Shown here in pieces: positions 12,237 to 59,902 of a stretch of DNA of 64,000 nucleotides; positions within the stretch are counted from its first letter, which is position 1; each line of letters begins with the position of its first letter. Below the pieces are notes generated by a model. That model was not told the origin of the DNA and made no database searches. It saw only the letters and a list, made by a program, of their open reading frames with translations. Source of the DNA: Antedon mediterranea (Eukaryota > Animalia > Echinodermata); contig NC_092673.1 in the NCBI RefSeq assembly GCF_964355755.1, forward strand, positions 3,162,001 through 3,226,000, written 5' to 3'. Made by a program: the position numbers and the translations under genes.

Positions 12237-13606
12237 TCATGGTGCCTTTGCTACACCCACAAGTGCAGGGCGTATTGTTCTATTGTGAAGTTTGTAGCCA
12301 ACTTTGGTTACCACAGCTACGGTGCCTGGTTCTTTTCCCTCGACAACCGATTCAAATAAAGCTTCATGTTGATTTGGGTCAAACTTCTCTCCTAGAGGAT
12401 CTATTTTTAAGAGGTGGTTTCTAGTGAAGACCTGAAAGATTAAACATGTTCAACTGTTAACGAACACCATTACGGTACTTCAATTTATTAGGATATACTG
12501 TAAGTAGTTTATTATTATTCTACCTTTTGTAATTGTGTTTCTGTCATCGTAACACCATTGAATAAGTCTTTTAGGTGGCTGTTAGAATTCAACTCGGTTT
12601 CTGGTACACTCTCCGTTGCTTTTGACAGAATGTCGGCAACCTCTAATAAGTCTTTACAAAAGTCTTGAATGGCAAAACGTCTGCTATCTTCCAGCTGTTT
12701 TTGATACCTTGTGCGGGTGTTTTCAACTTCTGCAAGAGCCCTCCGATATTTATCCTGAAAATAGAATTGTAATGAGTCGTATAATTTTAAAAGAACCTCA
12801 TCACATAATAAAATTCATTATAAAGTAGCAATATATTTGTTTTTATATATTATTATTTAGGTATTTGGTAGCAGTAGATCTAACCGATGTTTCCTTCAGT
12901 TCATTTTCAAGTTTAGTCTTTTCTTCCGCTAACTTCTTTCCATTCTCACTTAACTCCTGTGTTTTGCTAGTGCTATCTTTTTGTTCTGCTTCTGAAGGTT
13001 TGTGTTCTTGAGCTTCTGATGATAAACTCGGTATCCTGTTGAGAATAAATAAGAATAGGGTCAAAGTCTTTCTGATCATTCTCTCCTCACCCCACATATA
13101 ATTACTTCATTGTATTTATTATCCTGTGCTGTATGACAGTGTATGTTATTGTTATATTATTGTGGAAATAAATTAAATTAAAAATAGCCTGGATGTTACT
13201 AAAGACTTATTTTAAAGAATAATTATCAAGTATATAATAGTAAACCTGGTCATCTAAGTTCATTTCTATGATGATTGATCTTACGCCCCCAGCTAGGCCT
13301 GGTTTCCACGGATAACCGTTTCCACCACGGCGGGTCACCAACAAGCCCGTCTACTGCTGCATGCTTTACACTCTGTACTACCTAGTTTATAGTAGTAGGC
13401 TAGCCTACTAGCTGACTGATTGCGTAAGATCGGTTTCATAAGATTTTATTTCGTAAGGTATGACACAAAGTTTACAGAAACATGGTAAATGATATAAATA
13501 TAAAGTGTGCTTACCTATATGTATTTAAATTACTAAGAGGAATACGGTAAAATCTAGAAAAACGTAAACATTTGGAAATTACGTGCGTGTTCATGGTAGT
13601 CGCCAT
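12237..13606 (-). CDS. GRPEL1: Mitochondrial GrpE nucleotide-exchange factor (GRPEL1/2 orthologue), 222 aa
   Basis: Exons 13606-13515, 13035-12885, 12754-12524, 12431-12237 (669 nt, GT-AG, in frame). Arg-rich, acid-free presequence MATTMNTHVISKCLRFSRFYRIP; DKYRRALAEVENTR, FCKDLLEVADIL, FDPNQHEALF, GYKLHNRTIRPALVGV. Confidence 0.95.
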
Positions 13607-13787
13607 CTTTAGTATCCCAGCAATCACCGGCGTGAAGTTGGTTACTTATTCCTTATTCGATATTCAATTTTTTTTGTGAAGTTGGATCCTTATTCGACAT
13701 TCACATTCACATGTATGGGGCGCAATATGTGTAATATTTTAATTAAATGATTTTATACTTACGGCTTAGATTAACTAGGGCTATGAT

Positions 13788-16700
13788 TTATAGGGCTATA
13801 ACTTCGTTATAAACAGCATGGACCGGGATGACGATACATGGGTTGGGGCTAGTAGGGTCCAGTCGTTTCAGAAAAATACCACTTGCCCCGGTCCATGCCG
13901 TCTAGCTGTCATTTTACGCCATTTTAAAACCTTACTACAATTTAATGTTTTTTAAAATAAAAAATGCAATATACCGGATGATTTATAGGGCTATAATTAC
14001 GTGATAAACGGCATGGACCGGGATGACGATACATGGATTGGGGCGAGTAGGATCTAGTCATTTCAGAAAAATACCACTTGCCCCGGTCCATGCCGTCTAG
14101 CTGCCATTTTACGCCATTTTAAAAGGTTACCACAATTTAAGTTTTTTTTTTTATAAAAAATGCAATATAACCGTATGATTTATAGGGCTATAATTACGTT
14201 ATAAACGGCATGGACCGGGATGACGATACATGGGTTGGGGCTAGTAGGGTCCTGTCGTTTCAGAAAAATACCACTTGCCCCGGTCCATGCCGTCTAACTG
14301 CCATTTTACGCCATTTTAAAACGTTACTACAATTTAAGTTTTTTTTAAATGAAAAATGTAATATTACCGGATGATTTATAGGGCTATAATTACGTTATAA
14401 ACGGCATGGACCGGGATGACGATACATGGGTTGGGGCTAGTAGGGTCCTGTCGTTTCAGAAAAATACCACTTGCCCCGGTCCATGCCGTCTAGCTGCCAT
14501 TTTACGCCATTTTAAAACGTTACTACAATTTAAGTTTTTTTTAAATGAAAAATGTAATATTACCGTATGATATATAGGGCTATAATTACGTTATAAACGG
14601 CATGGACCGGGATGACGATACATGGGTTGGGGCGAGTAGGGTCCAGTCATTTCAGAAAAATACCACTTGCCCCGGTCCATGCCGTCTAGCTAGCATTTTA
14701 CGCCATTTTAAAACGTTACCACAATTTAACGTTTTTTTTTATAAAAAATGAAATATAACCGAATGATTTATAGGGCTATAATTACGTTATGAACGGCATG
14801 GACCGGGATGACGATACATGGGTTGGGGCTAGTAGGGTCCAGTCGTTTCAGAAAAATACCACTTGCCCCGGTCCATGCCGTCTAGCTGTCATTTTACGCC
14901 CTTTTAAAACGTTACTACAATTTAACGTTTTTTAAAATAAAAATTGCAATATAACCGGATGAAATATAGGGCTATAATTACGTGATAAACGGCATGGACC
15001 GGGATGACGATACATGGATTGGGGCGAGTAGGATCTAGTCATTTCAGAAAAATACCACTTGCCCCGGTCCATGCCGTCTAGCTGCCATTTTACGCCATTT
15101 TAAAACGTTACCACAATTTAAGTTTTTTTTTTTTATAAAAAATGCAATATAACCGTATGATTTATAGGGCTATAATTACGTTATAAACGGCATGGATCGG
15201 GATGACGATACATGGGTTGGGGCTAGTAGGGTCCTGTCGTTTCAGAAAAATACCACTTGCCCCGGTCCATGCCGTCTAGCTGCCATTTTACGCCATTTTA
15301 AAACGTCACTACAATTTAAGTTTTTTTTAAAGGAAAAATGTAATATTACCGGATGATATATAGGGCTATAATTACGTTATAAACGGCATGGACCGGGATG
15401 ACGATACATGGGTTGGGGCGAGTAGGGTCCAGTCATTTCAGAAAAATACCACTTGCCCCGGTCCATGCCGTCTAGCTAGCATTTTACGCCATTTTAAAAC
15501 GTTACCACAATTTAACGTTTTTTTTAATAAAAAAATGAAATATAACCGAATGATTTATAGGGCTATAATTACGTTATGAACGGCATGGACCGGGATGACG
15601 ATACATGGGTTGGGGCTAGTAGGGTCCAGTCGTTTCAGAAAAATACCACTTGTCCCGGTCCATGCCGTCTAGCTGTCATTTTACGCCATTTTAAAACGTT
15701 ACTACAATTTAACGTTTTTTTAAATAAAAATTGCAATATAACCGGATGAAATATAGGGCTATAATTACGTGATAAACGGCATGGACCGGGATGACGATAC
15801 ATGGATTGGGGCGAGTAGGATCTAGTCATTTCAGAAAAATACCACTTGCCCCGGTCCATGCCGTCTAGCTGCAATTTTACGCCATTTTAAAACGTTACCA
15901 CAATTTAAGTTTTTTTTTATAAAAAATGCAATATAACCGTATGATTTATAGGGCTATAATTACGTTATAAACGGCATGGACCGGGATGACGATACATGGG
16001 TTGGGGCTAGTAGGGTCCTGTCGTTTCAGAAAAATACCACTTGCCGCGGTCCATGCTGTCTAGCTGCCATTTTACGCCATTTTAAAACGTTACTACAATT
16101 TAAGTTTTTTTTAAATGAAAAATGTAATATTACCGGATGATATATAGGGCTATATTTACGTTATAAACGGCATGGACCGGGATGACAATACATGGGTTGG
16201 GGCGAGTAGGGTCCAGTCATTTCAGAAAAATACCACTTGCCCCGGTCCATGCCGTCTAGCTGTCATTTTACGCCATTTTAAAACCTTACTACAATTTAAT
16301 GTTTTTTTAAAAAAAAAATGCAATATACCGGATGATTTATAGGGCTATAATTACGTGATAAACGGCATGGACCGGGATGACGATACATGGATTGGGGCGA
16401 GTAGGATCTAGTCATTTCAGAAAAATACCACTTGCCCCGGTCCATGCCGTCTAGCTGCCATTTTACGCCATTTTAAAACGTTACCACAATTTAAGTTTTT
16501 TTTTAATAAAAAATGCAATATAACCGTATGATTTATAGGGCTAAAATTACGTTATAAACGGCATGGACCGGGATGACGATACATGGGTTGGGGCTAGTAG
16601 GGTCCTGTCGTTTCAGAAAAATACCACTTGCCCCGGTCCATGCCGTCTAGCTGCCATTTTACGCCATTTTAAAACGTTACTACAATTTAAGTTTTTTTTA

Positions 16701-19700
16701 AATGAAAAATGTAATATTACCGGATGATATATAGGGCTATAATTACGTTATAAACGGCATGGACCGGGATGACGATACATGGGTTGGGGCGAGTAGGGTC
16801 CAGTCATTTCAGAAAAATACCACTTGCCCCGGTCCATGCCGTCTAGCTAGCATTTTACGCCATTTTAAAACGTTACCACAATTTAACGTTTTTTTTTATA
16901 AAAAAATGAAATATAACCGAATGATTTATAGGGCTATAATTACGTTATGAACGGCATGGACCGGGATGACGATACATGGGTTGGGGCTAGTAGGGTCCAG
17001 TCGTTTCAGAAAAATACCACTTGTCCCGGTCCATGCCGTCTAGCTGTCATTTTACGCCATTTTAAAACGTTACTACAATTTAACGTTTTTTTAAATAAAA
17101 ATTGCAATATAACCGGATGAAATATAGGGCTATAATTACGTGATAAACGGCATGGACCGGGATGACGATACATGGATTGGGGCGAGTAGGATCTAGTCAT
17201 TTCAGAAAAATACCACTTGCCCCGGTCCATGCCGTCTAGCTGCAATTTTACGCCATTTTAAAACGTTACCACAATTTAAGTTTTTTTTTATAAAAAATGC
17301 AATATAACCGTATGATTTATAGGGCTATAATTACGTTATAAACGGCATGGACCGGGATGACGATACATGGGTTGGGGCTAGTAGGGTCCTGTCGTTTCAG
17401 AAAAATACCACTTGCCGCGGTCCATGCTGTCTAGCTGCCATTTTACGCCATTTTAAAACGTTACTACAATTTAAGTTTTTTTTAAATGAAAAATGTAATA
17501 TTACCGGATGATATATAGGGCTATATTTACGTTATAAACGGCATGGACCGGGATGACAATACATGGGTTGGGGCGAGTAGGGTCCAGTCATTTCAGAAAA
17601 ATACCACTTGCCCCGGTCCATGCCGTCTAGCTGTCATTTTACGCCATTTTAAAACCTTACTACAATTTAATGTTTTTTTAAAAAAAAAATGCAATATACC
17701 GGATGATTTATAGGGCTATAATTACGTGATAAACGGCATGGACCGGGATGACGATACATGGATTGGGGCGAGTAGGATCTAGTCATTTCAGAAAAATACC
17801 ACTTGCCCCGGTCCATGCCGTCTAGCTGCCATTTTACGCCATTTTAAAACGTTACCACAATTTAAGTTTTTTTTTAATAAAAAATGCAATATAACCGTAT
17901 GATTTATAGGGCTAAAATTACGTTATAAACGGCATGGACCGGGATGACGATACATGGGTTGGGGCTAGTAGGGTCCTGTCGTTTCAGAAAAATACCACTT
18001 GCCCCGGTCCATGCCGTCTAGCTGCCATTTTACGCCATTTTAAAACGTTACTACAATTTAAGTTTTTTTTAAATGAAAAATGTAATATTACCGGATGATA
18101 TATAGGGCTATAATTACGTTATAAACGGCATGGACCGGGATGACGATACATGGGTTGGGGCGAGTAGGGTCCAGTCATTTCAGAAAAATACCACTTGCCC
18201 CGGTCCATGCCGTCTAGCTAGCATTTTACGCCATTTTAAAACGTTACCACAATTTAACGTTTTTTTTTATAAAAAAATGAAATATAACCGAATGATTTAT
18301 AGGGCTATAATTACGTTATGAACGGCATGGACCGGGATGACGATACATGGGTTGGGGCTAGTAGGGTCCAGTCGTTTCAGAAAAATACCACTTGCCCCGG
18401 TCCATGCCGTCTAGCTGTCATTTTACGCCATTTTAAAACGTTACTACAATTTAACGTTTTTTTAAATAAAAATTGCAATATAACCGGATGAAATATAGGG
18501 CTATAATTACGTGATAAACGGCATGGACCGGGATAACGATACATGGATTGGGGCGAGTAGGATCTAGTCATTTCAGAAAAATACCACTTGCCCCGGTCCA
18601 TGCCGTCTAGCTGCCATTTGACGCCATTTTAAAACGTTACCACAATTTAAGTTTTTTTTTTATAAAAAATGCAATATAACCGTATGATTTATAGGGCTAT
18701 AATTACGTTATAAACGGCATGGACCGGGATGACGATACATGGGTTGGGGCTAGTAGGGTCCTGTCGTTTCAGAAAAATACCACTTGCCGCGGTCCATGCC
18801 GTCTAGCTGCCATTTTACGCCATTTTAAAACGTTACTACAATTTAAGTTTTTTTTAAATGAAAAATGTAATATTACCGGATGATATATAGGGCTATAATT
18901 ACGTTATAAACGGCATGGACCGGGATGACGATACATGGGTTGGGGCGAGTAGGGTCCAGTCATTTCAGAAAAATACCACTTGCCCCGGTCCATGCCGTCT
19001 AGCTAGCATTTTACGCCATTTTAAAACGTTACCACAATTTAACGTTTTTTTTTATAAAAAAATGAAATATAACCGAATGATTTACAGGGCTATAATTACG
19101 TTATGAACGGCATGGACCGGGATGACGATACATGGGTTGGGGCTAGTAGGGTCCAGTCATTTCAGAAAAATACCACTTGCCCCGGTCCATGCCGTCTAGC
19201 TGTCATTTTACGCCATTTTAAAACCTTACTACAATTTAATGTTTTTTTTAAAAAAAAATGCAATATACCGGATGATTTATAGGGCTATAATTACGTGATA
19301 AACGGCATGGACCGGGATGACGATACATGGATTGGGGCGAGTAGGATCTAGTCATTTCAGAAAAATACCACTTGCCCCGGTCCATGCCGTCTAGCTGCCA
19401 TTTTACGCCATTTTAAAATGTTACTACAATTTAAGTTTTTTTTAAATGAAAAATGTAATATTACCGGATGATATATAGGGCTATAATTACGTTATAAACG
19501 GCATGGACCGGGATGACGATACATGGGTTGGGGCGAGTAGGGTCCAGTCATTTCAGAAAAATACCACTTGCCCCGGTCCATGCCGTCTAGCTAGCATTTT
19601 ACGCCATTTTAAAACGTTACCACAATTTAACGTTTTTTTTTATAAAAAAATGAAATATAACCGAATGATTTACAGGGCTATAATTACGTTATGAACGGCA

Positions 19701-20894
19701 TGGACCGGGATGACGATACATGGGTTGGGGCTAGTAGGGTCCAGTCATTTCAGAAAAATACCACTTGCCCCGGTCCATGCCGTCTAGCTGTCATTTTACG
19801 CCATTTTAAAACCTTACTACAATTTAATGTTTTTTTAAAAAAAAAATGCAATATACCGGATGATTTATAGGGCTATAATTACGTGATAAACGGCATGGAC
19901 CGGGATGACGATACATGGATTGGGGCGAGTAGGATCTAGTCATTTCAGAAAAATACCACTTGCCCCGGTCCATGCCGTCTATCTGCCATTTTACGCCATT
20001 TTAAAATGTTACTACAATTTAAGTTTTTTTTAAATGAAAAATGTAATATTACCGGATGATATATAGGGCTATAATTACGTTATAAACGGCATGGACCGGG
20101 ATGACGATACATGGGTTGGGGCGAGTAGGGTCCAGTCATTTCAGAAAAATACCACTTGCCCCGGTCCATGCCGTCTAGCTAGCATTTTACGCCATTTTAA
20201 AACGTTACCACAATTTAAGGTTTTTTTTTTATAAAAAAATGAAATATAACCGAATGATTTATAGGGCTATAATTACGTTATGAACGGCATGGACCGGGAT
20301 GACGATACATGGGTTGGGGCTAGTAGGGTCCAGTCGTTTCAGAAAAATACCACTTGCCCCGGTCCATGCCGTCTAGCTGTCATTTTACGCCATTTTAAAA
20401 CGTTACTACAATTTAACGTTTTTTTAAATAAAAATTGCAATATAACCGGATGAAATATAGGGCTATAATTACGTGATAAACGGCATGGACCGGGATGACG
20501 ATACATGGATTGGGGCGAGTAGGATCTAGTCATTTCAGAAAAATACCACTTGCCCCGGTCCATGCCGTCTAGCTGCCATTTTACGCCATTTTAAAATGTT
20601 ACTACAATTTAATTTTTTTTTATAAAAAATGCAATATAACCGGAAGATATATAGGGCTATAATTACGTTATAAACGGCATGGACCAGGATGACGATACAT
20701 GGGTTGGGGCCAGTAGCGTCCAGTCATTTCAGAAAAATACCACTTGCCCTGGTCCATGTCGTCTAGCTGTCATTTTACGCCATTTTAAAACGTTACTACA
20801 ATTGAACTTTAAAAAAAAATGCAATATAAACGCATGATTTATAGGGCTATAATTACGTTATAAACGGCATGGACCGGGATGACGATACGTGGGT
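13788..20894 (+). repeat. ~196-bp satellite array, left arm (~36 monomers)
   Basis: Monomer ...ATAGGGCTATAATTACGTTATAAACGGCATGGACCGGGATGACGATAC... Higher-order periods of 1371 bp (15388/16759/18130) and 588 bp (18915/19503). Confidence 0.97.
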
Positions 20895-23800
20895 GAAATG
20901 ACTGGACCCTACTTGCCCCAATCAATGTATCGTCATCCCGGTCCATGCCGTTTATAACGTAATTATAGCCCTATAAATCATGCGTTTATATTGCATTTTT
21001 TATTTAAAAAAAAGTTAAATTGTAGTAACATTTTAAAATGGCGTAAAATGGCAGCTAGACGGCATAGACCGGGGCAAGTGGTATTTTTATAAAATCACTC
21101 GAACATACTCGCCTCAACCTATGTATCGTCATCCCGGTCCATGCCGTTTATAACGTAATTATAGCTCTATTATATCATGCATATATATTGCATTTTTTAT
21201 TTTTAAAAACGTAAAATTGTAGTAACGTTTTAAAATGGCGTAAAATGACAGCTAGACGGCATGGACCGGGGCAAGTGGTATTTTTCCAAAATGACTAGAC
21301 ACTACTCGTCCAAACCCATGCATCGTCATCCCGGTCCATGTCGTTTATAACGTAATTATAGCCCTATAAATCATACGTTTATAGTGCATTTTTTATTTTT
21401 AAAAACGTTAAATTGTAGTAACGTTTTAAAATGGCGTAAAATGACAGCTAGACGGCATGGACCGGGGCAAGTGGTACTTTTCTATAATGACTAGACCCTA
21501 CTCGCACCAACCCATGTATCGTCATCCCGGTCCATGACGTTTATAACGTAATTATAGCCCTATATATCATCCGGTTATATTGCATTTTTTATAAAAAAAA
21601 GTTAAATTGTAGTAACGTTTTAAAATGGCGTGAAATGGCCGCTAGACGGCATGGACCGGGTCAAGTGGTATTTTTCTGAAACGACTGGACCCTACTAGCC
21701 CAACCCATGTATCGTCATCCCGGTCCATAGCGTTTATAACGTAATTATAGCCCTATAAATCATACGTTTACATTGCATTTTTTATGAAAACCTTAAATTG
21801 TAATAACGTTTTAAAATGGCGTAAAATGACAGCTAGACGGCATGGACCGGGGCAAGTTGTATTTTTCTGAAATGACTGGACCCTACTCGCCCCAACCCAT
21901 GTATCGTTATCCCGGTCCATGCCGTTTATAACGTAATTATAGCCCTATACATCATACGTTTACATTGCATTTTTTATGAAAACCTTAAATTGTAGTAACG
22001 TTTTAAAATGGCGTAAAATGACAGCTAGACGGCATGGATCGGGGTAAGAGGTATATTTCTGAAATGACTGGACCCTACTCGCCCCAACCCATGTATCGTC
22101 ATCCCGGTCCATGCCGTTTATAACGTAATTATAGCCCTATATATCATCCGGTTATATTGCATTTTTTATAAAAACGTTAAATTGTAGTAAGGTTTTAAAA
22201 TGGCGTGAAATGGCAGCTAGACGGCATGGACTGGGGCAAGTGGTATATTTCTGAAACGACTGGACCCTACTAGCCCTAACCCATGTATCGTCATCCCGGT
22301 CCATGCCGTTTATAACGTAATTATAGCCCTATAATCATTCGGTTATATTGTATTTTTTATATAAAAAAAACGTTAAATTGTAGTAACGTTTTAAAATGGC
22401 GTAAAATGATAGCTAGACGGCATGGACCGTGGCAAGTGGTATTTTTCTGAATTGACTGGACCCTACTTGCCCCAACCCATGTATCGTTATCTCGGTCCAT
22501 GCCGTTTATAACGTAATTATAGCCCTATATTTCATCCGGTTATATTGAATTTTTTATAAAAACGTTAAATTGTAGTAACGTTTTAAAATGGCGTGAAATG
22601 GCAGCTAGACGGCATGGACCGGGTCAAGTGGTATTTTTCTGAAACTACTGGACCCTACTAGCCCCAAACCATGTATCGTCATCCCGGTCCATACCGTTTA
22701 TAACGTCATTATAATAGCCCTATAAATCATTCGGTTATATTGCATTTTGTATTTAAAAAAAAAAATTGTAGTACCGGTAACGTTTTAAAATGGCTTAAAA
22801 TGACAGCTAGACGGCATGGACCGGGGCAAGTGGTATTTTTCTGAAATGACTGGACCCTACTAGCCCCAACCCATGTATCGTCATCCCGGTCCATGCCGTT
22901 TATAACGTAATTATAGCCCTATAAATCATTCGGTTAAATTGCATTTTTTATTTAAAAAAATTAAATTGTAGTACCGGTAACGTTTTAAAATGGCGTAAAA
23001 TGACAGCTAGACGGCATGGACCGAGACAAGTGGTATTTTTATGCAATGACTGGACACTACTCGCCCCAACCCATGTATCGTCATCCCGGTCCAGGCCGTT
23101 TATAACGTCATTATAGCCCTATATATCATCCTGTTATATTGCATTTTTTATTTTAAAAAACGTTATATTGTAGTAACGTTTTAAAATGGCATAAAATGAT
23201 AGCTAGACGGCATGGACCGGGGCAAGTGGTATTTTTCTGAATTTACTGGACCCTACTTGCCCCAACCCATGTATCGTCATCCCGGTCCATGCCGTTTGTA
23301 ACGTAATTATAGCCCTATAAATCATACGTTTACATTGCATTTTTTATGAAAACCTTAAATTGTACTAACGTTTTAAAATGGCGTAAAATGACAGCTAGAC
23401 GGCATGGACCGGGGTAAGAGGTATTTTTCTGAAATGACTGGACCCTACTCGCCCCAACCCATGTATCGTCATCCCGGTCCATGTCGTTTATAACGTAATT
23501 ATAGCCCTATATTTCATCCGGTTATATTGCAATTTTTATAAAAACGTTAATTTGTAGTAAGGTTTTAAAATGGCGTGAAATGGCAGCTAGACGTCATGGA
23601 CCGGGTCAAGTGGTATTTTTCTGAAACTACTGGACCCTACTAGCCCCAACCCATGTATCGTCATCCCGGTCCATGCCGTTTATAACGTAATTATAGCCCT
23701 ACAAATCATTCGGTTATATTGCATTTTTTATTTAAAAAAATTAAATTGTAGTACCGGTAACGTTTTAAAATGGTGTAAAATTACAGCTAGACGGCATGGA

Positions 23801-26800
23801 CCGGGGCAAGTGGTATTTTTCTGAAATGACTGGACCCTACTCGCCCCAACCCATGTATCGTCATCCCGGTCTATGCCGTTTATAACGTAATTATAGCCCT
23901 ATATATCATCCTGTTATATTGCATTTTTTATTTAAAAAAACGTTAAATTGTAGTAACGTTTTAAAATGGCGTAAAATGACAGCTAAACGGCATGGACCGG
24001 GGCAAGTGGTATTTTTCAGAAACGACTGGACCCTACTAGCTTAACCCATGTATCGTCATCCCGGTCCATGCCGTTTATAACGTAATTATAGCCCTATAAA
24101 TCATTCGGTTATATTTCATTTTTTTTATAAAAAAAAAACGTTAAATTGTGGTAACGTTTTAAAATGGCGTAAAATGCTAGCTAGACGGCATGGACCGGGG
24201 CAAGTGGTATTTTTCTGAAATGACTGGACCCAACTCGCCCGAAACTATGTATCGTAATCCCGGTCCATGCCGTTTATAACGTAATTATAGCCCTATATAT
24301 CATCCGGTAATATTACATTTTTCATTTAAAAAAAACTTAAATTGTAGTAATGTTTTAAAATGGCGTAAAATGGCAGCTAGACGGCATGGACCGGGGCAAG
24401 TGGTATTTTTCTGAAACGACAGGACCCTACTAGCCCCAACCCATGTATCGTCATCGCGGTCCATGCCGTTTATAACGTAATTGTAGCCCTATAAATCATA
24501 CGGTTATATTGCATTTTTTATAAAAAAAAACTTAAATTGTAGTAACGTTTTAAAATGGCGTAAAATGACAGCTAGACGGCATGGACCGGGGTAAGAGGTA
24601 TTTTTCTGAAATGACTGGACCCTCCTCGCCCCAACCCATGTATCGTCATCCCGGTCCATGTCGTTTATAACGTAATTATAGCCCTATATTTCATCCGGTT
24701 ACATTGCAATTTTTATAAAAACGTTAATTTGTAGTAAGGTTTTAAAATGGCGTGAAATGGCAGCTAGACGGCATGGACCGGGTCAAGTGGTATTTTTCTG
24801 AAACTACTGGACCTTACTAGCCCCAACCCATGTATCGTCATCCCGGTCCATGCCGTTTATAACGTAATTATAGCCCTATAAATCATTCGGTTATATTGCA
24901 TTTTTTATTAAAAAAAACGTTAAATTGTAGTAACCTTTTAAAATGGCGTAAAATGATAGCTAGACGGCATGGACCGGGGCAAGTGGTATTTTTATGAATT
25001 AACTGGACCCTACTTGCCCCAACCCATGTATCGTCATCCCGGTCCATGCCGTTTATGACGTAATTATAGCCCTATAAATCATTCGGTTATATTGCATTTT
25101 GTATTTTAAAAAATTACAATGTAGTACCGGTAACGTTTTAAAATGGCTTAAAATGACAGCTAGACGGCATGGACCGGGGCAAGTTGTACTTTTCTGAAAT
25201 GACTGGACCCTACTCGCCACAACCCATGTATCGTTATCCCGGTCCATGCCGTTTATAACGTAATTATAGCCCTATACATCATACGTTTACATTGCATTTT
25301 TTATGAAAACCTTAAATTGTAGTAACGTTTTAAAATGGCGTAAAATGACAGCTAGACGGCATGGACCGAGACAAGTGGTATTTTTATGCAATGACTGGAC
25401 ACTACTCGCCCCAACCCATGTATCGTCATCCCGGTCCAGGCCGTTTATAACGTCATTATAGCCCTATATATCATCCTGTTATATTGCATTTTTTATTTTA
25501 AAAAACGTTATATTGTAGTAACGTTTTAAAATGGCATAAAATGATAGCTAGACGGCATGGACCGGGGCAAGTGGTATTTTTCTGAATTGACTGGACCCTA
25601 CTTGCCCCAACCCATGTATCGTCATCCCGGTCCATGCCGTTTGTAACGTAATTATAGCCCTATAAATCATACGTTTACATTGCATTTTTTATGAAAACCT
25701 TAAATTGTAGTAACGTTTTAAAATGGCGTAAAATGACAGCTAGACGGCATGGACCGGGGTAAGAGGTATTTTTCTGAAATGACTGGACCCTACTCGCCCC
25801 AACCCATGTATCGTCATCCCGGTCCATGTCGTTTATAACGTAATTATAGCCCTATATTTCATCCGGTTATATTGCAATTTTTATAAAAACGTTAATTTGT
25901 AGTAAGGTTTTAAAATGGTGTGAAATGGCAGCTAGACGTCATGGACCGGGTCAAGTGGTATTTTTCTGAAACTACTGGACCCTACTAGCCCCAACCCATG
26001 TATCGTCATCCCGGTCCATGCCGTTTATAACGTAATTATAGCCCTACAAATCATTCGGTTATATTGCATTTTTTATTTAAAAAAATTAAATTGTAGTACC
26101 GGTAACGTTTTAAAATGGTGTAAAATTACAGCTAGACGGCATGGACCGGGGCAAGTGGTATTTTTCTGAAATGACTGGACCCTACTCGCCCCAACCCATG
26201 TATCGTCATCCCGGTCTATGCCGTTTATAACGTAATTATAGCCCTATATATCATCCTGTTATATTGCATTTTTTATTTAAAAAAACGTTAAATTGTAGTA
26301 ACGTTTTAAAATGGCGTAAAATGACAGCTAAACGGCATGGACCGGGGCAAGTGGTATTTTTCAGAAACGACTGGACCCTACTAGCTTAACCCATGTATCG
26401 TCATGCCGGTCCATGCCGTTTATAACGTAATTATAGCCCTATAAATCATTCGGTTATATTTCATTTTTTTTATTAAAAAAAACCGTTAAATTGTGGTAAC
26501 GTTTTAAAATGGCGTAAAATGCTAGCTAGACGGCATGGACCGGGGCAAGTGGTATTTTTCTGAAATGACTGGACCCAACTCGCCCGAAACTATGTATCGT
26601 AATCCCGGTCCATGCCGTTTATAACGTAATTATAGCCCTATATATCATCCGGTAATATTACATTTTTCATTTAAAAAAAACTTAAATTGTAGTAATGTTT
26701 TAAAATGGCGTAAAATGGCAGCTAGACGGCATGGACCGGGGCAAGTGGTATTTTTCTGAAACGACAGGACCCTACTAGCCCCAACCCATGTATCGTCATC

Positions 26801-29800
26801 GCGGTCCATGCCGTTTATAACGTAATTGTAGCCCTATAAATCATACGGTTATATTGCATTTTTTATAAAAAAAAACTTAAATTGTAGTAACGTTTTAAAA
26901 TGGCGTAAAATGACAGCTAGACGGCATGGACCGGGGTAAGAGGTATTTTTCTGAAATGACTGGACCCTCCTCGCCCCAACCCATGTATCGTCATCCCGAT
27001 CCATGTCGTTTATAACGTAATTATAGCCCTATATTTCATCCGGTTACATTGCAATTTTTATAAAAACGTTAATTTGTAGTAAGGTTTTAAAATGGCGTGA
27101 AATGGCAGCTAGACGGCATGGACCGGGTCAAGTGGTATTTTTCTGAAACTACTGGACCTTACTAGCCCCAACCCATGTATCGTCATCCCGGTCCATGCCG
27201 TTTATAACGTAATTATAGCCCTATAAATCATTCGGTTATATTGCATTTTTTATTAAAAAAAACGTTAAATTGTAGTAACCTTTTAAAATGGCGTAAAATG
27301 ATAGCTAGACGGCATGGACCGGGGCAAGTGGTATTTTTATGAATTAACTGGACCCTACTTGCCCCAACCCATGTATCGTCATCCCGGTCCATGCCGTTTA
27401 TGACGTAATTATAGCCCTATAAATCATTCGGTTATATTGCATTTTGTATTTTAAAAAATTACAATGTAGTACCGGTAACGTTTTAAAATGGCTTAAAATG
27501 ACAGCTAGACGGCATGGACCGGGGCAAGTTGTACTTTTCTGAAATGACTGGACCCTACTCGCCACAACCCATGTATCGTTATCCCGGTCCATGCCGTTTA
27601 TAACGTAATTATAGCCCTATACATCATACGTTTACATTGCATTTTTTATGAAAACCTTAAATTGTAGTAACGTTTTAAAATGGCGTAAAATGACAGCTAG
27701 ACGACATGGATCGGGGTAAGAGGTATATTTCTGAAATGACTGGACCCTATTCGCCCCAACCCATGTATCGTCATCCCCGGTCTATGCCGTTTATAACGTA
27801 ATTATAGCCCTATATATCATCCGGTTATATTGCATTTTTTATAAAAACGTTAAATTGTAGTAAGGTTTTAAAATGGCGTGAAATGGCAGCTAGACGGCAT
27901 GGACCGGGCAAGTGGTATATTTCTGAAACGACTGGACCCTACTAGCCCTAACCCATGTATCGTCATCCCGGTCCATGCCGTTTATAACGTAATTATAGCC
28001 CTATAAATCATTCGGTTATATTGCATTTTTTATTTAAAAACATTAAATTGTAGTACCTGTAACGTTTTGAAATGGTGTAAAATTACAGCTAGACGGCATG
28101 GACCGGGGCAAGTGGTATTTTTCTGAAATGACTGGACCCTACTCGCCCCAACCCATGTATCGTCATCCCGGTCTATGCCGTTTATAACGTAATTATAGCC
28201 CTATATATCATCCTGTTATATTGCATTTTTTATTTAAAAAAAACGTTAATTTGTAGTAACGTTTTAAAATGGCATAAAATGATAGCTAGACGGCATGGAC
28301 CGGGGCAAGTGGTATTTTTCTGAATTGACTGGACCTTACTTGCCCCAACCCATGTATCGTCAGCCCGGTCCATGTCGTTTATAACGTAATTATAGCCCTA
28401 TATATCATCCGGTAATATTACATTTTTCATTTAAAAAAAACTTAAATTGTAGTAACGTTTTAAAATGGCGTAAAATGGCAGCTAGACGGCATGGACCGCG
28501 GCAAGTGGTATTTTTCTGAAACGACAGGACCCTACTAGCCCCAACCCATGTATCGTCATCCCGGTCCATGCCGTTTATAACGTAATTATAGCCCTATAAA
28601 TCATACGGTTATATTGCATTTTTTATAAAAAAAAAACTTAAATTGTGGTAACGTTTTAAAATGGCGTCAAATGGCAGCTAGACGGCATGGACCGGGGCAA
28701 GTGGTATTTTTCTGAAATGACTAGATCCTACTCGCCCCAATCCATGTATCGTTATCCCGGTCCATGCCGTTTATCACGTAATTATAGCCCTATATTTCAT
28801 CCGGTTATATTGCAATTTTTATTTAAAAAAACGTTAAATTGTAGTAACGTTTTAAAATGGCGTAAAATGACAGCTAGACGGCATGGACCGGGGCAAGTGG
28901 TATTTTTCTGAAACGACTGGACCCTACTAGCCCCAACCCATGTATCGTCATCCCGGTCCATGCCGTTCATAACGTAATTATAGCCCTATAAATCATTCGG
29001 TTATATTTCATTTTTTTATAAAAAAAAACGTTAAATTGTGGTAACGTTTTAAAATGGCGTAAAATGCTAGCTAGACGGCATGGACCGGGGCAAGTGGTAT
29101 TTTTCTGAAATGACTGGACCCTACTCGCCCCAACCCATGTATCGTCATCCCGGTCCATGCCGTTTATAACGTAATTATAGCCCTATACATCATCCGGTAA
29201 TATTACATTTTTCATTTAAAAAAAACTTAAATTGTAGTAACGTTTTAAAATGGCGTAAAATGGCAGCTAGACGGCATGGACCGGGGCAAGTGGTATTTTT
29301 CTGAAACGACAGGACCCTACTAGCCCCAACCCATGTATCGTCATCCCGGTCCATGCCGTTTATAACGTAATTATAGCCCTATAAATCATACGGTTATATT
29401 GCATTTTTTATTTAAAAAAAACTTAAATTGTGGTAACGTTTTAAAATGGCGTAAAATGGCAGCTAGACGGCATGGACCGGGGCAAGTGGTATTTTTCTGA
29501 AATGACTAGATCCTACTCGCCCCAATCCATGTATCGTCATCCCGGTCCATGCCGTTTATCACGTAATTATAGCCCTATAAATCATCCGGTATATTGCATT
29601 TTTTTTTTTAAAAAACATTAAATTGTAGTAAGGTTTTAAAATGGCGTAAAATGACAGCTAGACGGCATGGACCGGGGCAAGTGGTATTTTTCTGAAATGA
29701 CTGGACCCTACTCGCCCCAACCCATGTATTGTCATCCCGGTCCATGCCGTTTATAACGTAAATATAGCCCTATATATCATCCGGTAATATTACATTTTTC

Positions 29801-32520
29801 ATTTAAAAAAAACTTAAATTGTAGTAACGTTTTAAAATGGCGTAAAATGGCAGCTAGACAGCATGGACCGCGGCAAGTGGTATTTTTCTGAAACGACAGG
29901 ACCCTACTAGCCCCAACCCATGTATCGTCATCCCGGTCCATGCCGTTTATAACGTAATTATAGCCCTATAAATCATACGGTTATATTGCATTTTTTATAA
30001 AAAAAAACTTAAATTGTGGTAACGTTTTAAAATGGCGTAAAATTGCAGCTAGACGGCATGGACCGGGGCAAGTGGTATTTTTCTGAAATGACTAGATCCT
30101 ACTCGCCCCAATCCATGTATCGTCATCCCGGTCCATGCCGTTTATCACGTAATTATAGCCCTATATTTCATCCGGTTATATTGCAATTTTTATTTAAAAA
30201 AACGTTAAATTGTAGTAACGTTTTAAAATGGCGTAAAATGACAGCTAGACGGCATGGACCGGGGCAAGTGGTATTTTTCTGAAACGACTGGACCCTACTA
30301 GCCCCAACCCATGTATCGTCATCCCGGTCCATGCCGTTCATAACGTAATTATAGCCCTATAAATCATTCGGTTATATTTCATTTTTTTATTAAAAAAAAC
30401 GTTAAATTGTGGTAACGTTTTAAAATGGCGTAAAATGCTAGCTAGACGGCATGGACCGGGGCAAGTGGTATTTTTCTGAAATGACTGGACCCTACTCGCC
30501 CCAACCCATGTATCGTCATCCCGGTCCATGCCGTTTATAACGTAATTATAGCCCTATATATCATCCGGTAATATTACATTTTTCCTTTAAAAAAAACTTA
30601 AATTGTAGTAACGTTTTAAAATGGCGTAAAATGGCAGCTAGACGGCATGGACCGGGGGAAGTGGTATTTTTCTGAAACGACAGGACCCTACTAGCCCCAA
30701 CCCATGTATCGTCATCCCGGTCCATGCCGTTTATAACGTAATTATAGCCCTATAAATCATACGGTTATATTGCATTTTTTATAAAAAAAAAAACTTAAAT
30801 TGTGGTAACGTTTTAAAATGGCGTAAAATGGCAGCTAGACGGCATGGACCGGGGCAAGTGGTATTTTTCTGAAATGACTAGATCCTACTCGCCCCAATCC
30901 ATGTATCGTCATCCCGGTCCATGCCGTTTATCACGTAATTATAGCCCTATATTTCATCCGGTTATATTGCAATTTTTATTTAAAAAAACGTTAAATTGTA
31001 GTAACGTTTTAAAATGGCGTAAAATGACAGCTAGACGGCATGGACCGGGGCAAGTGGTATTTTTCTGAAACGACTGGACCCTACTAGCCCCAACCCATGT
31101 ATCGTCATCCCGGTCCATGCCGTTCATAACGTAATTATAGCCCTATAAATCATTCGGTTATATTTCATTTTTTATAAAAAAAAACGTTAAATTGTGGTAA
31201 CGTTTTAAAATGGCGTAAAATGCTAGCTAGACGGCATGGACCGGGGCAAGTGGTATTTTTCTGAAATGACTGGACCCTACTCGCCCCAACCCATGTATCG
31301 TCATCCCGGTCCATGCCGTTTATAACGTAATTATAGCCCTATATATCATACGGTAATATTACATTTTTCATTTAAAAAAAACTTAAATTGTAGTAACGTT
31401 TTAAAATGGCGTAAAATGGCAGCTAGACGGCATGGACCGGGGCAAGTGGTATTTTTCTGAAACGACAGGACCCTACTAGCCCCAACCCATGTATCGTCAT
31501 CCCGGTCCATGCCGTTTATCACGTAATTATAGCCCTATATTTCATCCGGTTATATTGCAATTTTTATTTAAAAAAACGTTAAATTGTAGTAACGTTTTAA
31601 AATGGCGTAAAATGACAGCTAGACGGCATGGACCGGGGCAAGTGGTATTTTTCTGAAACGACTGGACCCTACTAGCCCCAACCCATGTATCGTCATCCCG
31701 GTCCATGCCGTTCATAACGTAATTATAGCCCTATAAATCATTCGGTTATATTTCATTTTTTATAAAAAAAACCGTTAAATTGTGGTAACGTTTTAAAATG
31801 GCGTAAAATGCTAGCTAGACGGCATGGACCGGGGCAAGTGGTATTTTTCTGAAATGACTGGACCCTACTCGCCCCAACCCATGTATCGTCATCCCGGTCC
31901 ATGCCGTTTATAACGTAATTATAGCCCTATATATCATACGGTAATATTACATTTTTCATTTAAAAAAAACTTAAATTGTAGTAACGTTTTAAAATGGCGT
32001 AAAATGGCAGCTAGACGGCATGGACCGGGGCAAGTGGTATTTTTCTGAAACGACAGGACCCTACTAGCCCCAACCCATGTATCGTCATCCCGGTCCATGC
32101 CGTTTATAACGTAATTATAGCCCTATAAATCATACGGTTATATTGCATTTTTTTATTTAAAAAAAACTTAAATTGTGGTAACGTTTTAAAATGGCGTAAA
32201 ATGGCAGCTAGACGGCATGGACCGGGGCAAGTGGTATTTTTCTGAAATGACTAGATCCTACTCGCCCCAATCCATGTATCGTCATCCCGGTCCATGCCGT
32301 TTATCACGTAATTATAGCCCTATAAATCATCCGGTATATTGCATATTTTATTTAAAAAAACATTAAATTGTAGTAAGTTTTTAAAATGGCGTAAAATGAC
32401 AGCTAGACGGCATGGACCGGGGCAAGTGGTATTTTTCTGAAACGACTGGACCCTACTAGCCCCAACCCATGTATCGTCATCCCGGTCCATGCTGTTTATA
32501 ACGAAGTTATAGCCCTATAA
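20895..32520 (-). repeat. ~196-bp satellite array, right arm, inverted (~59 monomers)
   Basis: Reverse complement of the same monomer, with a 2345-bp internal duplication (23021/25366; 25053/27398). Confidence 0.97.
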
Positions 32521-32691
32521 ATCATAGCCCTAGTTAATCTAAGCCGTAAGTATAAAATCATTTAATTAAAATATTACACATATTGCGCCCCATACATGTG
32601 AATGTGAATGTCGAATAAGGATCCAACTTCACAAAAAAAATTGAATATCGAATAAGGAATAAGTAACCAACTTCACGCCGGTCCAGCAATC

Positions 32692-33031
32692 CTATTACTT
32701 CCGGGATTGCCCATTGATATCTATCATGGGTAATTTTACCACATTGCAAACTTTTATTTTCTAATTTATAGAGCACACTTCTCATTAAAAGTGCTGAATA
32801 TATATATAATTATATGAATTTATTTATTTGATGTTAGTTTGCACATTTTTTTTAGTACATTTGGTTAATTAATTGATGAACTATTATTTGTGTGCGGACG
32901 TAGTATTGAAGTTATGTGTCCTGGATACGGGATAAACAACAACTACAATTTCACCTCTCGTGGAACTTTGTTAAGGAAATTTTGAAATAAGTAGATGTAT
33001 AAAGGGGAAAGAGTAGACATAATTATTAATT
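32692..33031. promoter_or_regulatory. Remnant of the GrpE/CFAP58 divergent promoter
   Basis: ETS/GABP-type ACTTCCGG (~32697), RFX X-box-like GTGTCCTGGATAC (32916-32928) and adjacent forkhead site ATAAACAA (~32932). Motif matches only. Confidence 0.55.
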
Positions 33032-36000
33032 ATGACAGAGGTAAGATTATATCTATCTATGATAAACATGGTCTAGGCTAGGGCCTGACATATAACTGTT
33101 TTAAAGCAGAATAGACAAGGCTAGGCCTGGCCCTAGAGGCTAGGCTAGGCAGTTGTAGTAAGTAGGAGGCTAACCCTTTCGACTAGCCTAGCTAGGCCTA
33201 GCCTCCTATAAAAATATAGGATAGGAGACCGTTAAATACACTCCTAGTAGTAGTACTATAAAAGGATCGATTCCAGGCTAGAGGTAAAGTAGGTCCTAGC
33301 TAGAAACAGATCGTCATTATACTTCAATTAACTTAATTAATTTAATAATATTAATAAATATAACCGCTGATTTGTTTTTCTTTTTGTGCAGGAAAAAAAG
33401 AATGAAAGTCCTGCCAATAAAGGTGCCATTGAAGACAGTGCCTTTGAGGCACTGGAAAGAGATTTCCAAGACACCTTGAGTGAGTTGATGGGTGATCGTA
33501 GCTTGGAAAAGTTTCGCACTGAATATGAAAAGTTACACCGTGCTCTGAAAAAATCACACGAAAGTGAGAAACGTTTGATGACAAAATGCAGGGAATTGAA
33601 TGCAGAGATTGTAGCAAATTCAGCAAAAGTATCAACAGCTCTTAAGTTGTCCCAAGAAGACCAGACGACAATTTCATCCCTCAAAAAAGTAACTTTCTAT
33701 TCTGATCTCTGTATTTCACAATGCTGTCCATTAATAATAATATAGTGAAAATAACTTTTTTAATTGAATTGTTAAATTTATAATCTACTAATCACCATTT
33801 TTATTCTTATCTTTTCAGGAAATTGAGAAGGCATGGAAGATGGTGGATGCATCCCAAGAGAAGGAACAAAGAGCAAGGGAGACAATCCAATCCCTTAAGC
33901 TAGAAATCACTAATCTGAGCAAACTGGTAGAGCAAGGAGCCGGCTTAACTATGGGACAGGAACATAGGTAGCTATCAAAGTACTGCACATAATTTAAGCA
34001 AAAATATGTCACCAGATTTTGTAGACACTGTATATGATATATTTTATACTCTATAGGCCTATCTTTTTGAAGCTGCAAAAACTAGCCCATTCATCCATTG
34101 TGGCCATCATCAAGAGCTTAGAAACGTTGTATTAGGCACTATAAGACTATCATTATTATTATTATTATTATAAATGATGCTTTAGACACTAACCTTATAT
34201 TAAAGTCTTTTTACGGTCAGCTGACCTGAAACCTCATCCTAACCAGGAGGGTCATTTTAAAAGTCCAGATTTTGACAACATGGTCATTGTTGGAAAACCA
34301 GTTTTTCCAATTTGTATTAAGGGTTACTGAATTCTGTAGTTCAGTATTATAGTGTTAAACAAATATTTCTACTTGTTTGTTAGTGTTAATGAGTTACTGA
34401 AAGCAAAAGAGGAATTGTCAAAAGAACGAGATGATCAACTGGCAGAGATTGTCAAACTCAGGGAGCAGTTGACAGATTCTTCAAAGAAACAACAACAGGC
34501 AGAAGAGGACAAGTCTGATGCTGAAAACAAAATATCTGAAGTAAGTCTAGATTACTGGTATTAAGTTTTTTCTCTGTTCCGACGACCTAGGCCTTAAATT
34601 ATATAAATTATCCATTATGGTATATTTGTCTCAAGATTGTCCAGCTCTGTAAATTAAGTTTTTGTTTAAATTAACTACACACCAAAAAAAACATGTGCAT
34701 ACCTGATATAGTGGAATCCAAGGTTATCAAATGGACCTAGAATCAACCAAATTTGTGTCTGATGAAAAAAAATTGGCAGACCAAATATATGTGAATAGTA
34801 CTATAGTAGCTTTTTACAACTCCCTGCTTTGTATGACCTCATAAATCCTAGGTACTAGGTCACTGCAAAAACCAAAAGCTGTCTATTATCTATGATGCAC
34901 TTTTACCAGAAATCATCAAATCCAATGTTTTGTTTTTTTTTTGTTGCTTTTCTAGTTAACACAAGACATTCAGGTTCGTAGTAATGAAGCGCAACGAGAG
35001 ATGCGCCGCAAAGAAAAGCTTGATCGTGAATTCAAAGCTGCCAAGACAGATCTTGAAGCAAAAGCGGGTGAAATCAAAGCTATGCAACAACAAGTGGAAC
35101 GCTACAAGGGTGACATGGCAAAACTGGAAACACAGTCTAAAGACCAAAAGGTCAAAAACTCCTCAAATTCACTTTATTTTATAGTGTATTTCATAGAATA
35201 TGAAAATATATAAAACATTAGGTTAAAAGTATAAAAATATTTAGGAACACTATATATATATTACACATTTCATTAAAATATAAAAATAGTACACACAGAT
35301 AGAATTAAGATAAAGTCACAAATTATACGTCATTTGAAAGTCTGATGGAATACGGTACAAAGTAAAATATCTCTTATATCTCAGCAAGTTACGTCTTTTT
35401 GTAATTGATACATATTATATTAATAAGTAATTTTTAAAGATGTTCTGTAAAAGCTACCATGATTGTTTGAAATTATTTTACTTTGGTTGATTTTAAGTCA
35501 AAATATTTTCTGTCATAATAATTTGTTTATTTAATTTGTAGATATTGTACGAAAGGACTGTAAGAGACACTGAGGTTTTGAACACGCGTTTTACACGACT
35601 GCAACAGGATTACGAAACACAGTTGATAAACAATGATCAATTGACGCAAGAGAACAATGAAAGGGTTGTCGAATTAAAGGTAAGTTGTATAACAGCTGCG
35701 TAAAATAGTTATATCTCCGATGTAGACGTTTATTTATTACTATATACTAATATAGTTATACCAATTTTTATTACAGTATTTCATTATTAATCATTATTTT
35801 TAGGCAAAAGAAGATGACATCAGTAACTTAAAAATTGAGACTGTACGTTTGAGCAAAGTGCGAGAAGGTATTCAGCGTAAGCTGAGGACGGTAGAAGACA
35901 ATAAAGCGGAAGTGGAGCAGCAGAAGGAAACTCTTAAATCGCAGATCGTTGCTCTTGAAAGAGGTAAGGCCCAGTTACATTCCTTTATTATTACAACCAA

Positions 36001-41409: not shown

Positions 41410-42351
41410 TTATGTATCACCAATTATGCTCTGGACACTGAAACTCAACGCTGGCCTCTTTGTTGCTGACATTCTCTTTTTATCATCTTGTGAGAGTAAC
41501 TCATTTCCAGCGCTTCTTTGTATTCCTACGTCATATTTACGTAGAACCGATGTGAAGTTTGAATAATGACCAGCTATGCGATAAGAGGGGGGCGATTCCC
41601 CTTCATGTACGCTACCAGTAATGGAACTGGAATTAATAGGCCTATCAGTGGTCAATTCTGATGTCGACGACAGCAGCAGACGTTTAGAACCAGATAAGAC
41701 TACTGGATGTGGAATGGTGTTTGCAGCCGACGACGGAGAGGATGTTTCAGATGGCGTTGCAGCAGTGGAAGATGTCTGTTGTTCTGATCGACGTTTCCTC
41801 TTGCGACGGAAGTTGCCATTGTCAAACATTTTTTCACAATCTGGGTCTAGTGTCCAGTAATTTCCTTTCCCAGGGTCTCCATCATTCCGTGGAACTTTGA
41901 CGAAACAATCGTTTAGAGATAAATTGTGTCGTATTGAGTTTTGCCATCCAGTTTTACTTTTTTTGTAAAATGGAAAATGATCAGAAACAAATCTGTAAAT
42001 ACCACTAAGCGTGATTTTCTTGTCTTTAGCCGACTGAATCGACATCGCAATGAGAGCTGAGTAAGAATACGGCGGTCGTACAATTTTGTACAGATCATGA
42101 TGTGTTGCAGCGAATGGAAACCAAATGTCCGTGGGGTTTAAATAGGTCGAGCTGGGCAGAGGAATTCGGTGATAACTAGGTTGATGATGGCCTGGATAGT
42201 AGCCTGTTGAGTTATGGAAGTCTAGCCCTACTGTTGAAACGTAAGGCGATGTATGTGTCCCAAGTAATCCAGATGTGTCTGCTAGTCTCACTGGTGTTGG
42301 GTGCTGTATCGACGAATACTCCATTGTAGTTTCACCGTTGTAGTAATACAT
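41410..42351 (-). CDS. FOXI: Forkhead box I transcription factor, single coding exon, 313 aa
   Basis: Forkhead domain [13 protein letters not shown]...[16 protein letters not shown]...[30 protein letters not shown] is FoxI-typical; C-terminal eh1-like FSVQSII. Confidence 0.93.
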
Positions 42352-42459
42352 ATCGATAAAATATTAATTCCTGTAAATATGTGATTCTTACAGAGTTTTT
42401 TTCACAGGGTATTAGACATCCAGAACTTTAGCAAACGAGTCTATCTGCAACCGAAAAGT

Positions 42460-59300: not shown

Positions 59301-59902
59301 CTAATTGGAGACCACTCTTTTTTAGACTAGACCAGACTAGACTTACCATGGATACCAACAGAAAGCTTAAGGCTAGTCAAATGGCCAACCAGTTAAGGCA
59401 GGGGTGCCATTTATCATACATAAAAAGAGCTACTCAAGACCGACTTGCTCCTAGTTCTGGTGGTGGAACAAGTCTTATCGGATAAGGACTATAAACTGTA
59501 GGTCCAGTGTACACTGTTATCCAGTGCATGTTAAACAACCTAGTTCATCATTCGAGATAAGTAGGGGGTTACCACGATGGACTGGTTCACAAAGTATCCT
59601 CTGTATCGGGGGAAGGATTTAGACATTGGATATCAGTAATAGTGTCATATTTACATTCATACACAATGACAAGAATTGTGGATATAAAGTTTGCGGTGTA
59701 TTAGTTCTGAATATTATTAATATAAAACTTTATTCTAAATAAATTTATTTTTATATTTTACTAAGGATCCCACGGTGCTTATATTGAAGTATTGAAATCC
59801 GAGTGTTCTATGATTGACTTCTACAAGAAACTAGGCTTTTTTGATGTCCCATTAGCGGACAACCAAGAAGAAGATTTCGTCATCCTTGGTAGAACCATCT
59901 AG
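47322..59902 (+). CDS. OGA: Protein O-GlcNAcase (GH84 + stalk + pseudo-HAT domain)
   Basis: ~15 exons: LCGVVEG|[14 protein letters not shown], catalytic ILFDDID, FCPT|[41 protein letters not shown]|, [14 protein letters not shown]|[12 protein letters not shown] and a GNAT-like C-terminus; stop TAG at 59902. Start codon is tentative. Confidence 0.95.
48700..48929 (-). mobile_element. tRNA-derived Deu-like SINE
   Basis: Minus-strand head GAGCGAGTGGCCAAGCGGTTAAG (A box), GGTTTGAGCC (B-box-like) and the shared core. Confidence 0.8.
49716..49846. mobile_element. MITE family A copy
   Basis: TTA|AGCTCTGTCTACACTA ... TAGTGTAGACAGAGCT|TTT. Confidence 0.85.
51900..52135. repeat. Degenerate 20-bp tandem repeat
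   Basis: GCAGCTCTTGCATCACTTCT units in an OGA intron. Confidence 0.75.
56369..57621 (+). repeat. 56-bp G-rich minisatellite (~22 copies)
   Basis: Unit GAGGTATTGACTAGAGGGTGCACTCCTGACTGGTATGGGGCTGGGGTCTTCCCATT. Confidence 0.96.
58188..58400 (+). mobile_element. Second copy of the hammerhead-bearing short repeat
   Basis: GCA-CTGATGA-C-GGGC-TAGTGTT-GCCC-GAAA-CCTC-TGC, with a downstream body homologous to 37310-37445. Confidence 0.6.
58835..59072 (-). mobile_element. tRNA-derived Deu-like SINE
   Basis: Head GTGAGTGGCCGAGCGGTTAAG...GATTCGAGAC, core homologous to the other copies. A partial + strand copy lies at ~59450-59590. Confidence 0.82.

Follow-up and report, generated by a model that had tools for sequence, protein, structure and literature searches.

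How did 19 kb of satellite DNA without a gene of its own come to lie in a promoter of some 0.3 kb that serves two genes? This question is raised by a locus of the crinoid Antedon mediterranea located in a stretch of 64,000 nucleotides (positions 3,162,001 to 3,226,000 of the forward strand of contig NC_092673.1, NCBI RefSeq assembly GCF_964355755.1), which is referred to here as the window and in whose own coordinates all positions are given. The satellite-filled insertion, which spans positions 13626-32682 (19,057 bp), is, with good confidence, a non-autonomous foldback DNA transposon moved by a transposase encoded elsewhere, probably one of the Mutator-like element (MULE)/Rehavkus group. A foldback-type, non-autonomous element had already been proposed in an earlier note made from the letters of the window, and its structure, the lack of an open reading frame of more than 83 codons and the presence of the same end at other flanks all bear this out.

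The element is flanked by an exact 9-bp direct repeat, CCAGCAATC, at 13617 and 32683, as the earlier note had described, and within the window this 9-mer is present only at 13617-13625 and 32683-32691. Two copies of the bare 9-mer in a window of this length are not rare (4 of 100 shuffles reach that number), and the significance of the repeat as a target-site duplication (TSD) lies therefore in its placement directly against both ends of the element: nine matches at fixed places flanking both ends have a chance of ~9e-6 at the base composition of the flanks. The outermost 304 bp of the left end are identical to the reverse complement of the right end. The part of each end that lies outside the array is 157 bp long, shorter than the ~165 bp first assigned to these unique termini, the mirror image of which is indeed exact, and the other 98% of the element is an array of a 196-bp repeat. 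The doubled motif noticed before is present at both ends, with GTGAAGTTGG at 13632 and 13676 and CCTTATTCGA at 13651 and 13688 in the left terminus and the mirrored arrangement in the right one. Reading the element in six frames gives a longest stop-free stretch of 83 codons, in agreement with the earlier statement that it contains no transposase reading frame. Neither the terminus nor the monomer recurs elsewhere in the window, except for AT-rich chance matches, and an exact scan with the 27-bp element end gave 0 matches both in metagenome_contigs and in genome_contigs, which is what animal DNA would lead one to expect. A likeness between the inner terminus and the monomer was considered and rejected, as equally high scores were reached by 900 out of 1000 shuffles and by 164 out of 245 genomic windows.

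The satellite forms two head-to-head arrays, for which Tandem Repeats Finder (TRF) reports 36.3 copies of the 196-bp unit at 13783-20894 and 59.4 copies in the opposite orientation at 20894-32525; an anchor-based count gives 37 and 60 monomers, and the previous estimate of ~95 copies of a ~196-bp monomer is thus confirmed. The monomer alignment comprises 36 left and 59 right full monomers, numbered inwards along each arm (L1-L36 and R1-R59), and divides the element as follows:

13617..13625, plus strand: left TSD copy, CCAGCAATC, directly outside the element end and single in empty-site contigs
13626..13782, plus strand: left non-array terminus, 157 bp, with the doubled GTGAAGTTGG...CCTTATTCGA motif (candidate transposase site)
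13783..18916, plus strand: outer left array, L1-L26, mirror-ordered relative to the outer right array (monomer alignment)
18917..20894, plus strand: inner left array, L27-L36 and a truncated monomer, with no colinear right partner (monomer alignment)
20814..21001, no strand: centre, a 75-bp perfect mirror around a 38-bp loop, with two truncated monomers abutting at 20894/20895
20895..28371, minus strand: inner right array, R22-R59 and a truncated monomer, of an older class (monomer alignment)
28372..32525, minus strand: outer right array, R1-R21, mirror partner of L1-L26 (monomer alignment)
32526..32682, minus strand: right non-array terminus, exact reverse complement of the left one
32683..32691, plus strand: right TSD copy, CCAGCAATC, directly outside the element end and single in empty-site contigs

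Along both arms a few recurring monomer variant types follow one another in a fixed order. Each of the monomers R1-R21 has a counterpart among L1-L26, and over 21 x 176 compared columns the 21 pairs differ by 13 substitutions (0.35%, with a slippage-prone T/A run masked), whereas random monomer pairs of either arm are ~5% apart, and the mirror-order score is 70.5 versus 5.7 +/- 6.7, with a maximum of 31.5, in 200 shuffles. These paired, mirror-ordered monomers therefore constitute true terminal inverted repeats (TIRs) of ~5.3 kb on the left and 4.3 kb on the right, which differ by whole monomers. The palindrome that the earlier note saw in the whole element applies thus to the outer arms, in which 21 right monomers mirror the left, and not to the inner 38 right monomers, which are older, diverged and unpaired: R22-R59 show a mean pairwise divergence of 8.5%, and private changes number 40 among these 38 monomers but 2 among the 21 monomers R1-R21. 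Between the arms there is no middle domain, the truncated monomers abutting at 20894/20895, and this absence is read as a sign of a deletion derivative. The two innermost monomers, L36 and R59, share a variant present in 3 of the 95 monomers. Within the outer left array lies a 7-monomer duplication, visible as a 1,497-bp exact repeat at 15527/16898 that is also the longest exact direct repeat inside the element, and within the inner right array a 12-monomer duplication with a period of 2,345 bp, the copies of which differ at 9 sites. With two 3-monomer duplications, these are the block duplications considered recent; together they account for ~5 kb, and subtracting the four leaves ~14 kb of distinct monomers. 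The monomer contains a perfect 15-bp inverted repeat, the halves of which occur in 82 and 72 exact copies, and the central inversion point does not coincide with it. The whole monomer folds weakly, with a z of -1.88 and an equally good fold in 9 of 200 shuffles, and 13 Rfam matches, all to microRNA hairpin models and far below the gathering scores, were rejected.

Whether the insertion is real, and how recent it is, can be read from sequencing runs. The left flank is present in nine runs from three studies and two organisms, and read-derived contigs of five of these nine were examined; run X9 gave no matching contigs and carries no weight either way, and run X5, the contigs of which are spliced, is taken as RNA-like by guess, its record bearing no RNA label. 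In run X1, the depth is 28.1 in the flank, 14.5 at the right junction and 13.3 at the empty site, the contig of which contains a single copy of the 9-mer and runs on into the 21 bases just outside the left TSD. The left junction is seen in X1 and X4, where the flank contig stops exactly at 13625 in a fork-like manner. The insertion is thus likely heterozygous in one individual, with filled and empty alleles side by side. In organism B (run X6) the empty site, again with one copy of the 9-mer, lies within a contig of 593 bp that extends 219 letters to one side of it and 374 to the other, and the empty site is therefore likely the ancestral state. The empty site that the earlier note had asked for is thus present both in the sample itself and in a related organism, and its proposal of a recent insertion is sustained by this polymorphism.

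The end of the element is also found away from this locus, as the earlier note had anticipated. In X1 and X4 the terminus has a depth of 745-833 versus 31-35 for the flank (more than 20x the flank), and among the pieces listed other flanks join the terminus at the same boundary (13626) in X1, X4 and X5. Taking ~14 as the depth of one haplotype, and bearing in mind that depth is not copy number, this would correspond roughly to 55 ends in a diploid genome and thus to 25-30 copies of the element. Organism B has the element end too, with a more diverged inner part, and the family is therefore likely older than the split of the two organisms and has been active since. One family member lacks the second motif copy owing to a 41-bp deletion (depth 26-27), so that two copies may not be strictly required, and in one X5 contig a variant of the terminal motif is tandemly repeated. 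Both organisms also have contigs that share only the outer 34 bp (13632-13665), the flanking sequence being different on both sides; judged from sequence, this suggests a sister family with other ends, which may be a lead to an autonomous partner. In the RNA-like run X5, the terminus appears in a 209-bp contig (depth 66, 13626-13790), for which transcription and DNA carry-over are indistinguishable. The end k-mer extended by a C has a depth of 430 in X1, about half that of the core terminus, and C makes up 16.5% of flank bases; this hints at a target preference for C beside 32683, which comes from the matches listed and from overlapping k-mers and is not firm.

The position of the insertion relative to the neighboring genes is defined by three features:

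12237..13606, minus strand: chaperone gene GrpE, 4 coding exons, ATG at 13606 (Pfam GrpE, E 3.5e-19 and 8.9e-13; spliced X5 contig)
32697..32704, minus strand: motif CCGGAAGT, sole copy in the 64-kb window
32941..33040, plus strand: first exon of CFAP58, ATG at 33032 (spliced X5 contig; Pfam CFAP58_CC, E 9.8e-43, in a later exon)

A spliced X5 contig spans three GrpE exons and starts at 13612, and another starts at 32941, splices at 33040 into the next exon of CFAP58 and runs in the direction away from GrpE. On the empty allele, ~270 bp separate the GrpE ATG from the start of the CFAP58 contig and ~360 bp separate it from the ATG of CFAP58, and the element splits the short (~0.3-kb) divergent promoter common to both genes. 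Neither this site nor the extent of the true arms nor the missing middle domain had been recognised in the earlier note. The TSD is 10 bp from the GrpE ATG, so that 19 native bases are left upstream of GrpE on the filled allele, and CCGGAAGT, which we take to be an ETS-like motif, lies ~25 bp upstream of the ATG of GrpE when the element is absent and 19 kb away when it is present. The filled allele would be likely to lower GrpE expression unless the element end supplies a promoter. The element is also CpG-rich (observed/expected 1.33 at 13626-32682 versus 0.74 in the flanks) and could therefore carry methylation to the promoter. Comparison with run X6 gives 26 substitutions and 11 gaps over 370 bp, and among the differences listed (5 are unlisted) none falls in the 46 bp at the target (32683-32728), a pattern that would fit a constrained promoter.

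Foldback elements with modular long TIRs exist in echinoderms, namely the TU elements of Strongylocentrotus purpuratus, which are a few kb long with short repeats and an 8-bp TSD and are likened to the Antedon element by description, not by sequence. Of the features of the foldback class, the Antedon element has long modular TIRs (157-bp termini followed by 4.3/5.3-kb arrays), a 9-bp TSD within the 8-10 bp usual for the class, and dispersed ends, and lacks a middle domain of variable size between the arms. It shares with the MULE/Rehavkus group a 9-bp TSD (range 8-11) combined with long TIRs that contain subterminal tandem repeats. Rehavkus and the majority of MULEs are listed with TSDs of 9 bp, among them Rehavkus-3_TC, with 18,501 bp (PMC6446971). 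In Tribolium, Rehavkus elements have up to 50 monomers per terminus and Rehavkus-like arms exceed 11 kb, and the Rehavkus-like elements bearing TfSat06 have been proposed to spread their satellite by transposition (bioRxiv 10.1101/2024.12.02.626372). The Rehavkus transposase is of the DDE type and has a PHD finger. Rehavkus and the Antedon element are thus alike in the 9-bp TSD, in long inverted termini in which the number of satellite monomers varies and in total length; they differ in that the Rehavkus and Tribolium elements have a central part between the arms, whereas the Antedon element has none and is 98% satellite. Furthermore, Rehavkus is listed from arthropods and annelids only (PMC6446971), and the Antedon element is tied to this group by structure and not by a transposase.

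A similar design is found in Tetris of Drosophila virilis (PMC4079207), which is also non-autonomous, with a flanking domain followed by ~200-bp tandem repeats in both TIRs, and which has been assigned to Mutator by the length of its TSDs (8-10 bp) alone. Tetris TIRs do not exceed 1,735 bp and surround a middle domain, whereas the mirrored arms of the Antedon element measure 4.3 and 5.3 kb; in Tetris the flanking domain and the repeat share 37 bp (PMC4079207), whereas the Antedon terminus has no significant similarity to its monomer. In Aedes aegypti, the active MULE Muta1, which is also a type 2 foldback element, likewise has 8-9 bp TSDs, subterminal TIR repeats, many non-autonomous derivatives and a bias for genic sites, but is 3.2 kb long, with 145-bp TIRs containing 12-bp repeats, and encodes its transposase (PMC5225508). 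Because Tetris has the same design at a smaller scale and Rehavkus-3_TC and the Tribolium arms are of comparable size, neither the design nor the size is new, and the description of the element as unusually large in the earlier note goes too far. The spread of satellites by transposition has also been published before for insects, in most cases on the basis of assemblies that lack the empty allele. A literature search, with most subscription papers and Repbase outside its reach, returned no report of such elements in crinoids or echinoderms, and a further review (PMC12628747) contributed nothing on Rehavkus. By its sequence, the element would behave as a Rehavkus/foldback type, its membership in the MULEs hinging on the transposase.

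In the mechanism proposed, the transposase would bind both of the identical ends, perhaps through the doubled motif, which the analogy to the subterminal repeats of Muta1 (PMC5225508) and Galileo (cited in PMC4079207) makes a candidate binding site, and the excised unit would then be joined at a 9-bp staggered cut. Such a role of the motif is favored because contigs of both organisms share only the outer 34 bp and an X5 contig contains the tandem variant. Copying between the arms may keep them alike, whole monomers may be gained or lost via unequal exchange or slippage, and an ancestral middle domain could have been lost through deletion between the innermost monomers. Most of the satellite would have arrived as cargo rather than grown on site, because a monomer diversity of 5-8.5% is too old for a polymorphic insertion, and since ~14 kb remain once the block duplications are set aside, this reading stands despite recent growth. 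Mu elements of maize and P elements target transcription starts (PMC7337890). An insertion at the start of a gene agrees with this behavior, and a similar preference would here be represented by one site, 10 bp from the GrpE ATG.

Several observations weigh against this interpretation. The element has no transposase of its own, so that its assignment to the MULEs comes from TSD length and structure, and no second copy is seen with both flanks, the paired TSD being known for one site only. The junction contigs of X1 and X4 (57 bp) and the empty-site contig of X1 (51 bp) fall short of the rule of 31 letters a side for bridging, sample S1 may itself be the source of the assembly, and the depth of the left junction (23.3 and 26.1) exceeds that of the right one (14.5) without explanation. 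The interior is known from the assembly alone, and its mirror homology breaks off abruptly at 28376. Finally, of 33 maize Mu insertions near genes, 11 reduced expression and 2 abolished it (PMC7337890); most thus did not abolish it, and an effect on GrpE is therefore not assured. That the whole structure is a fold-back read or an assembly artefact, long inverted repeats being a known artefact shape, has a negligible probability: the flanks are different genes and not mirror images of each other, the arms differ by substitutions and whole monomers, which excludes a fold-back read, and both junctions and the empty site are present in read-derived contigs, which refutes an artefact for the ends. 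It is quite unlikely, yet more probable than an artefact, that the insertion and its ends are real and that the assembler crossed into another family member, for example at 28376, making the length and asymmetry wrong. Depth points indeed to tens of near-identical ends in the genome, the right arm flips abruptly from young to old monomers right after an 812-bp perfect arm-to-arm match, and the centre, too, is known from the assembly only. However, the longest exact direct repeat inside the element is short relative to long reads, the 9 differences between the copies of the 12-monomer block are not those of an assembly echo, and the rare variants shared by the innermost monomers, together with the 75-bp perfect mirror, tie the arms together at the centre.

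Two further explanations concern the history and the affiliation of the element. A small foldback element could have inserted and its arrays grown later, by unequal exchange or gap repair from another locus, so that the 19 kb never moved as a whole. The recent 7-, 12- and 3-monomer duplications show that array length changes in place, and the old inner right block has no partner in the left arm, but these duplications explain ~5 kb only, the remaining monomers are distinct and 5-8.5% apart, and thus predate a polymorphic insertion in which the TSD and the ends are still intact, and both arms bear the same long order of variants; later growth is therefore considered unlikely. It is unlikely as well that the element derives from another superfamily, P/Galileo-like, hAT or Merlin, and has a foldback shape without being a MULE. 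P, Galileo and hAT elements generate TSDs of 7-8 bp, outside which the TSD found here falls, being exactly 9 bp as fixed by the empty allele. The P/Galileo superfamily is characterised by a transposase with a THAP domain. Rehavkus entries give 9 bp in 5 of 6 rows, the other being NA (PMC6446971). In favor of another superfamily, the foldback structure had more than one origin (PMC4079207), P elements likewise target transcription starts (PMC7337890), and no transposase anchors the superfamily. A foldback element of the MULE/Rehavkus group carried in with its satellite remains the preferred reading.

The rest of the window contains several further features. To the left, an eIF3A-like gene (4381-10711, plus strand; name inferred from a PCI domain) stands tail to tail with GrpE, and beyond CFAP58 lies a single-exon FoxI gene (41410-42363, minus strand), the best match of which, at 57% over 98% of the query, comes from Anneissia japonica, a crinoid; among 7,948 candidates scored, the remaining near-full-length matches are much weaker, and this makes a feather star the probable host. 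A plus-strand gene at 50.9-58.8 kb, which looks O-GlcNAcase-like to us, matched no Pfam family in the two exons searched, and a 56-bp minisatellite of 22 copies (56368-57622) is located between its exons. A 21-bp tandem unit recurs at three intronic places (3021-3069, 6340-6396 and 38620-38669), and two MITE-like inverted-repeat pairs (MITE, miniature inverted-repeat transposable element) occur at 58849-59589 (arms of 61-66 bp at 79-92%) and 60737-61088 (51 bp at 90%). A second, unrelated satellite with a 195-bp unit and a 391-bp dimer begins at 61590 and continues past the end of the window at 64000. Most of its monomer is palindromic, which resembles a MITE arranged in tandem, and the octamer TTATTCGA from the foldback terminal motif is present in it, in 11 copies; no foldback-like terminus precedes this satellite.

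In all, the value of this locus lies in the filled and empty alleles present in one animal, in the absence of a middle domain and in the position in the GrpE/CFAP58 promoter. With both alleles in one animal, an exact TSD and a monomer diversity older than the insertion, it represents a clean example of satellite DNA as transposon cargo. It is also a natural experiment in which a 19-kb satellite block separates GrpE from its shared promoter region, and because the haplotypes differ by single-nucleotide polymorphisms, allele-specific expression and methylation would directly reveal the effect of a fresh satellite block on the adjoining genes. A bolder and unlikely extension is that crinoids have a still active family of satellite palindromes, 14-19 kb long and devoid of a middle domain, which inserts preferentially at the transcription starts of housekeeping genes, the outward end replacing the displaced promoter so that GrpE stays expressed. 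If true, this would be a route for seeding large CpG-rich satellite blocks at promoters at little cost.

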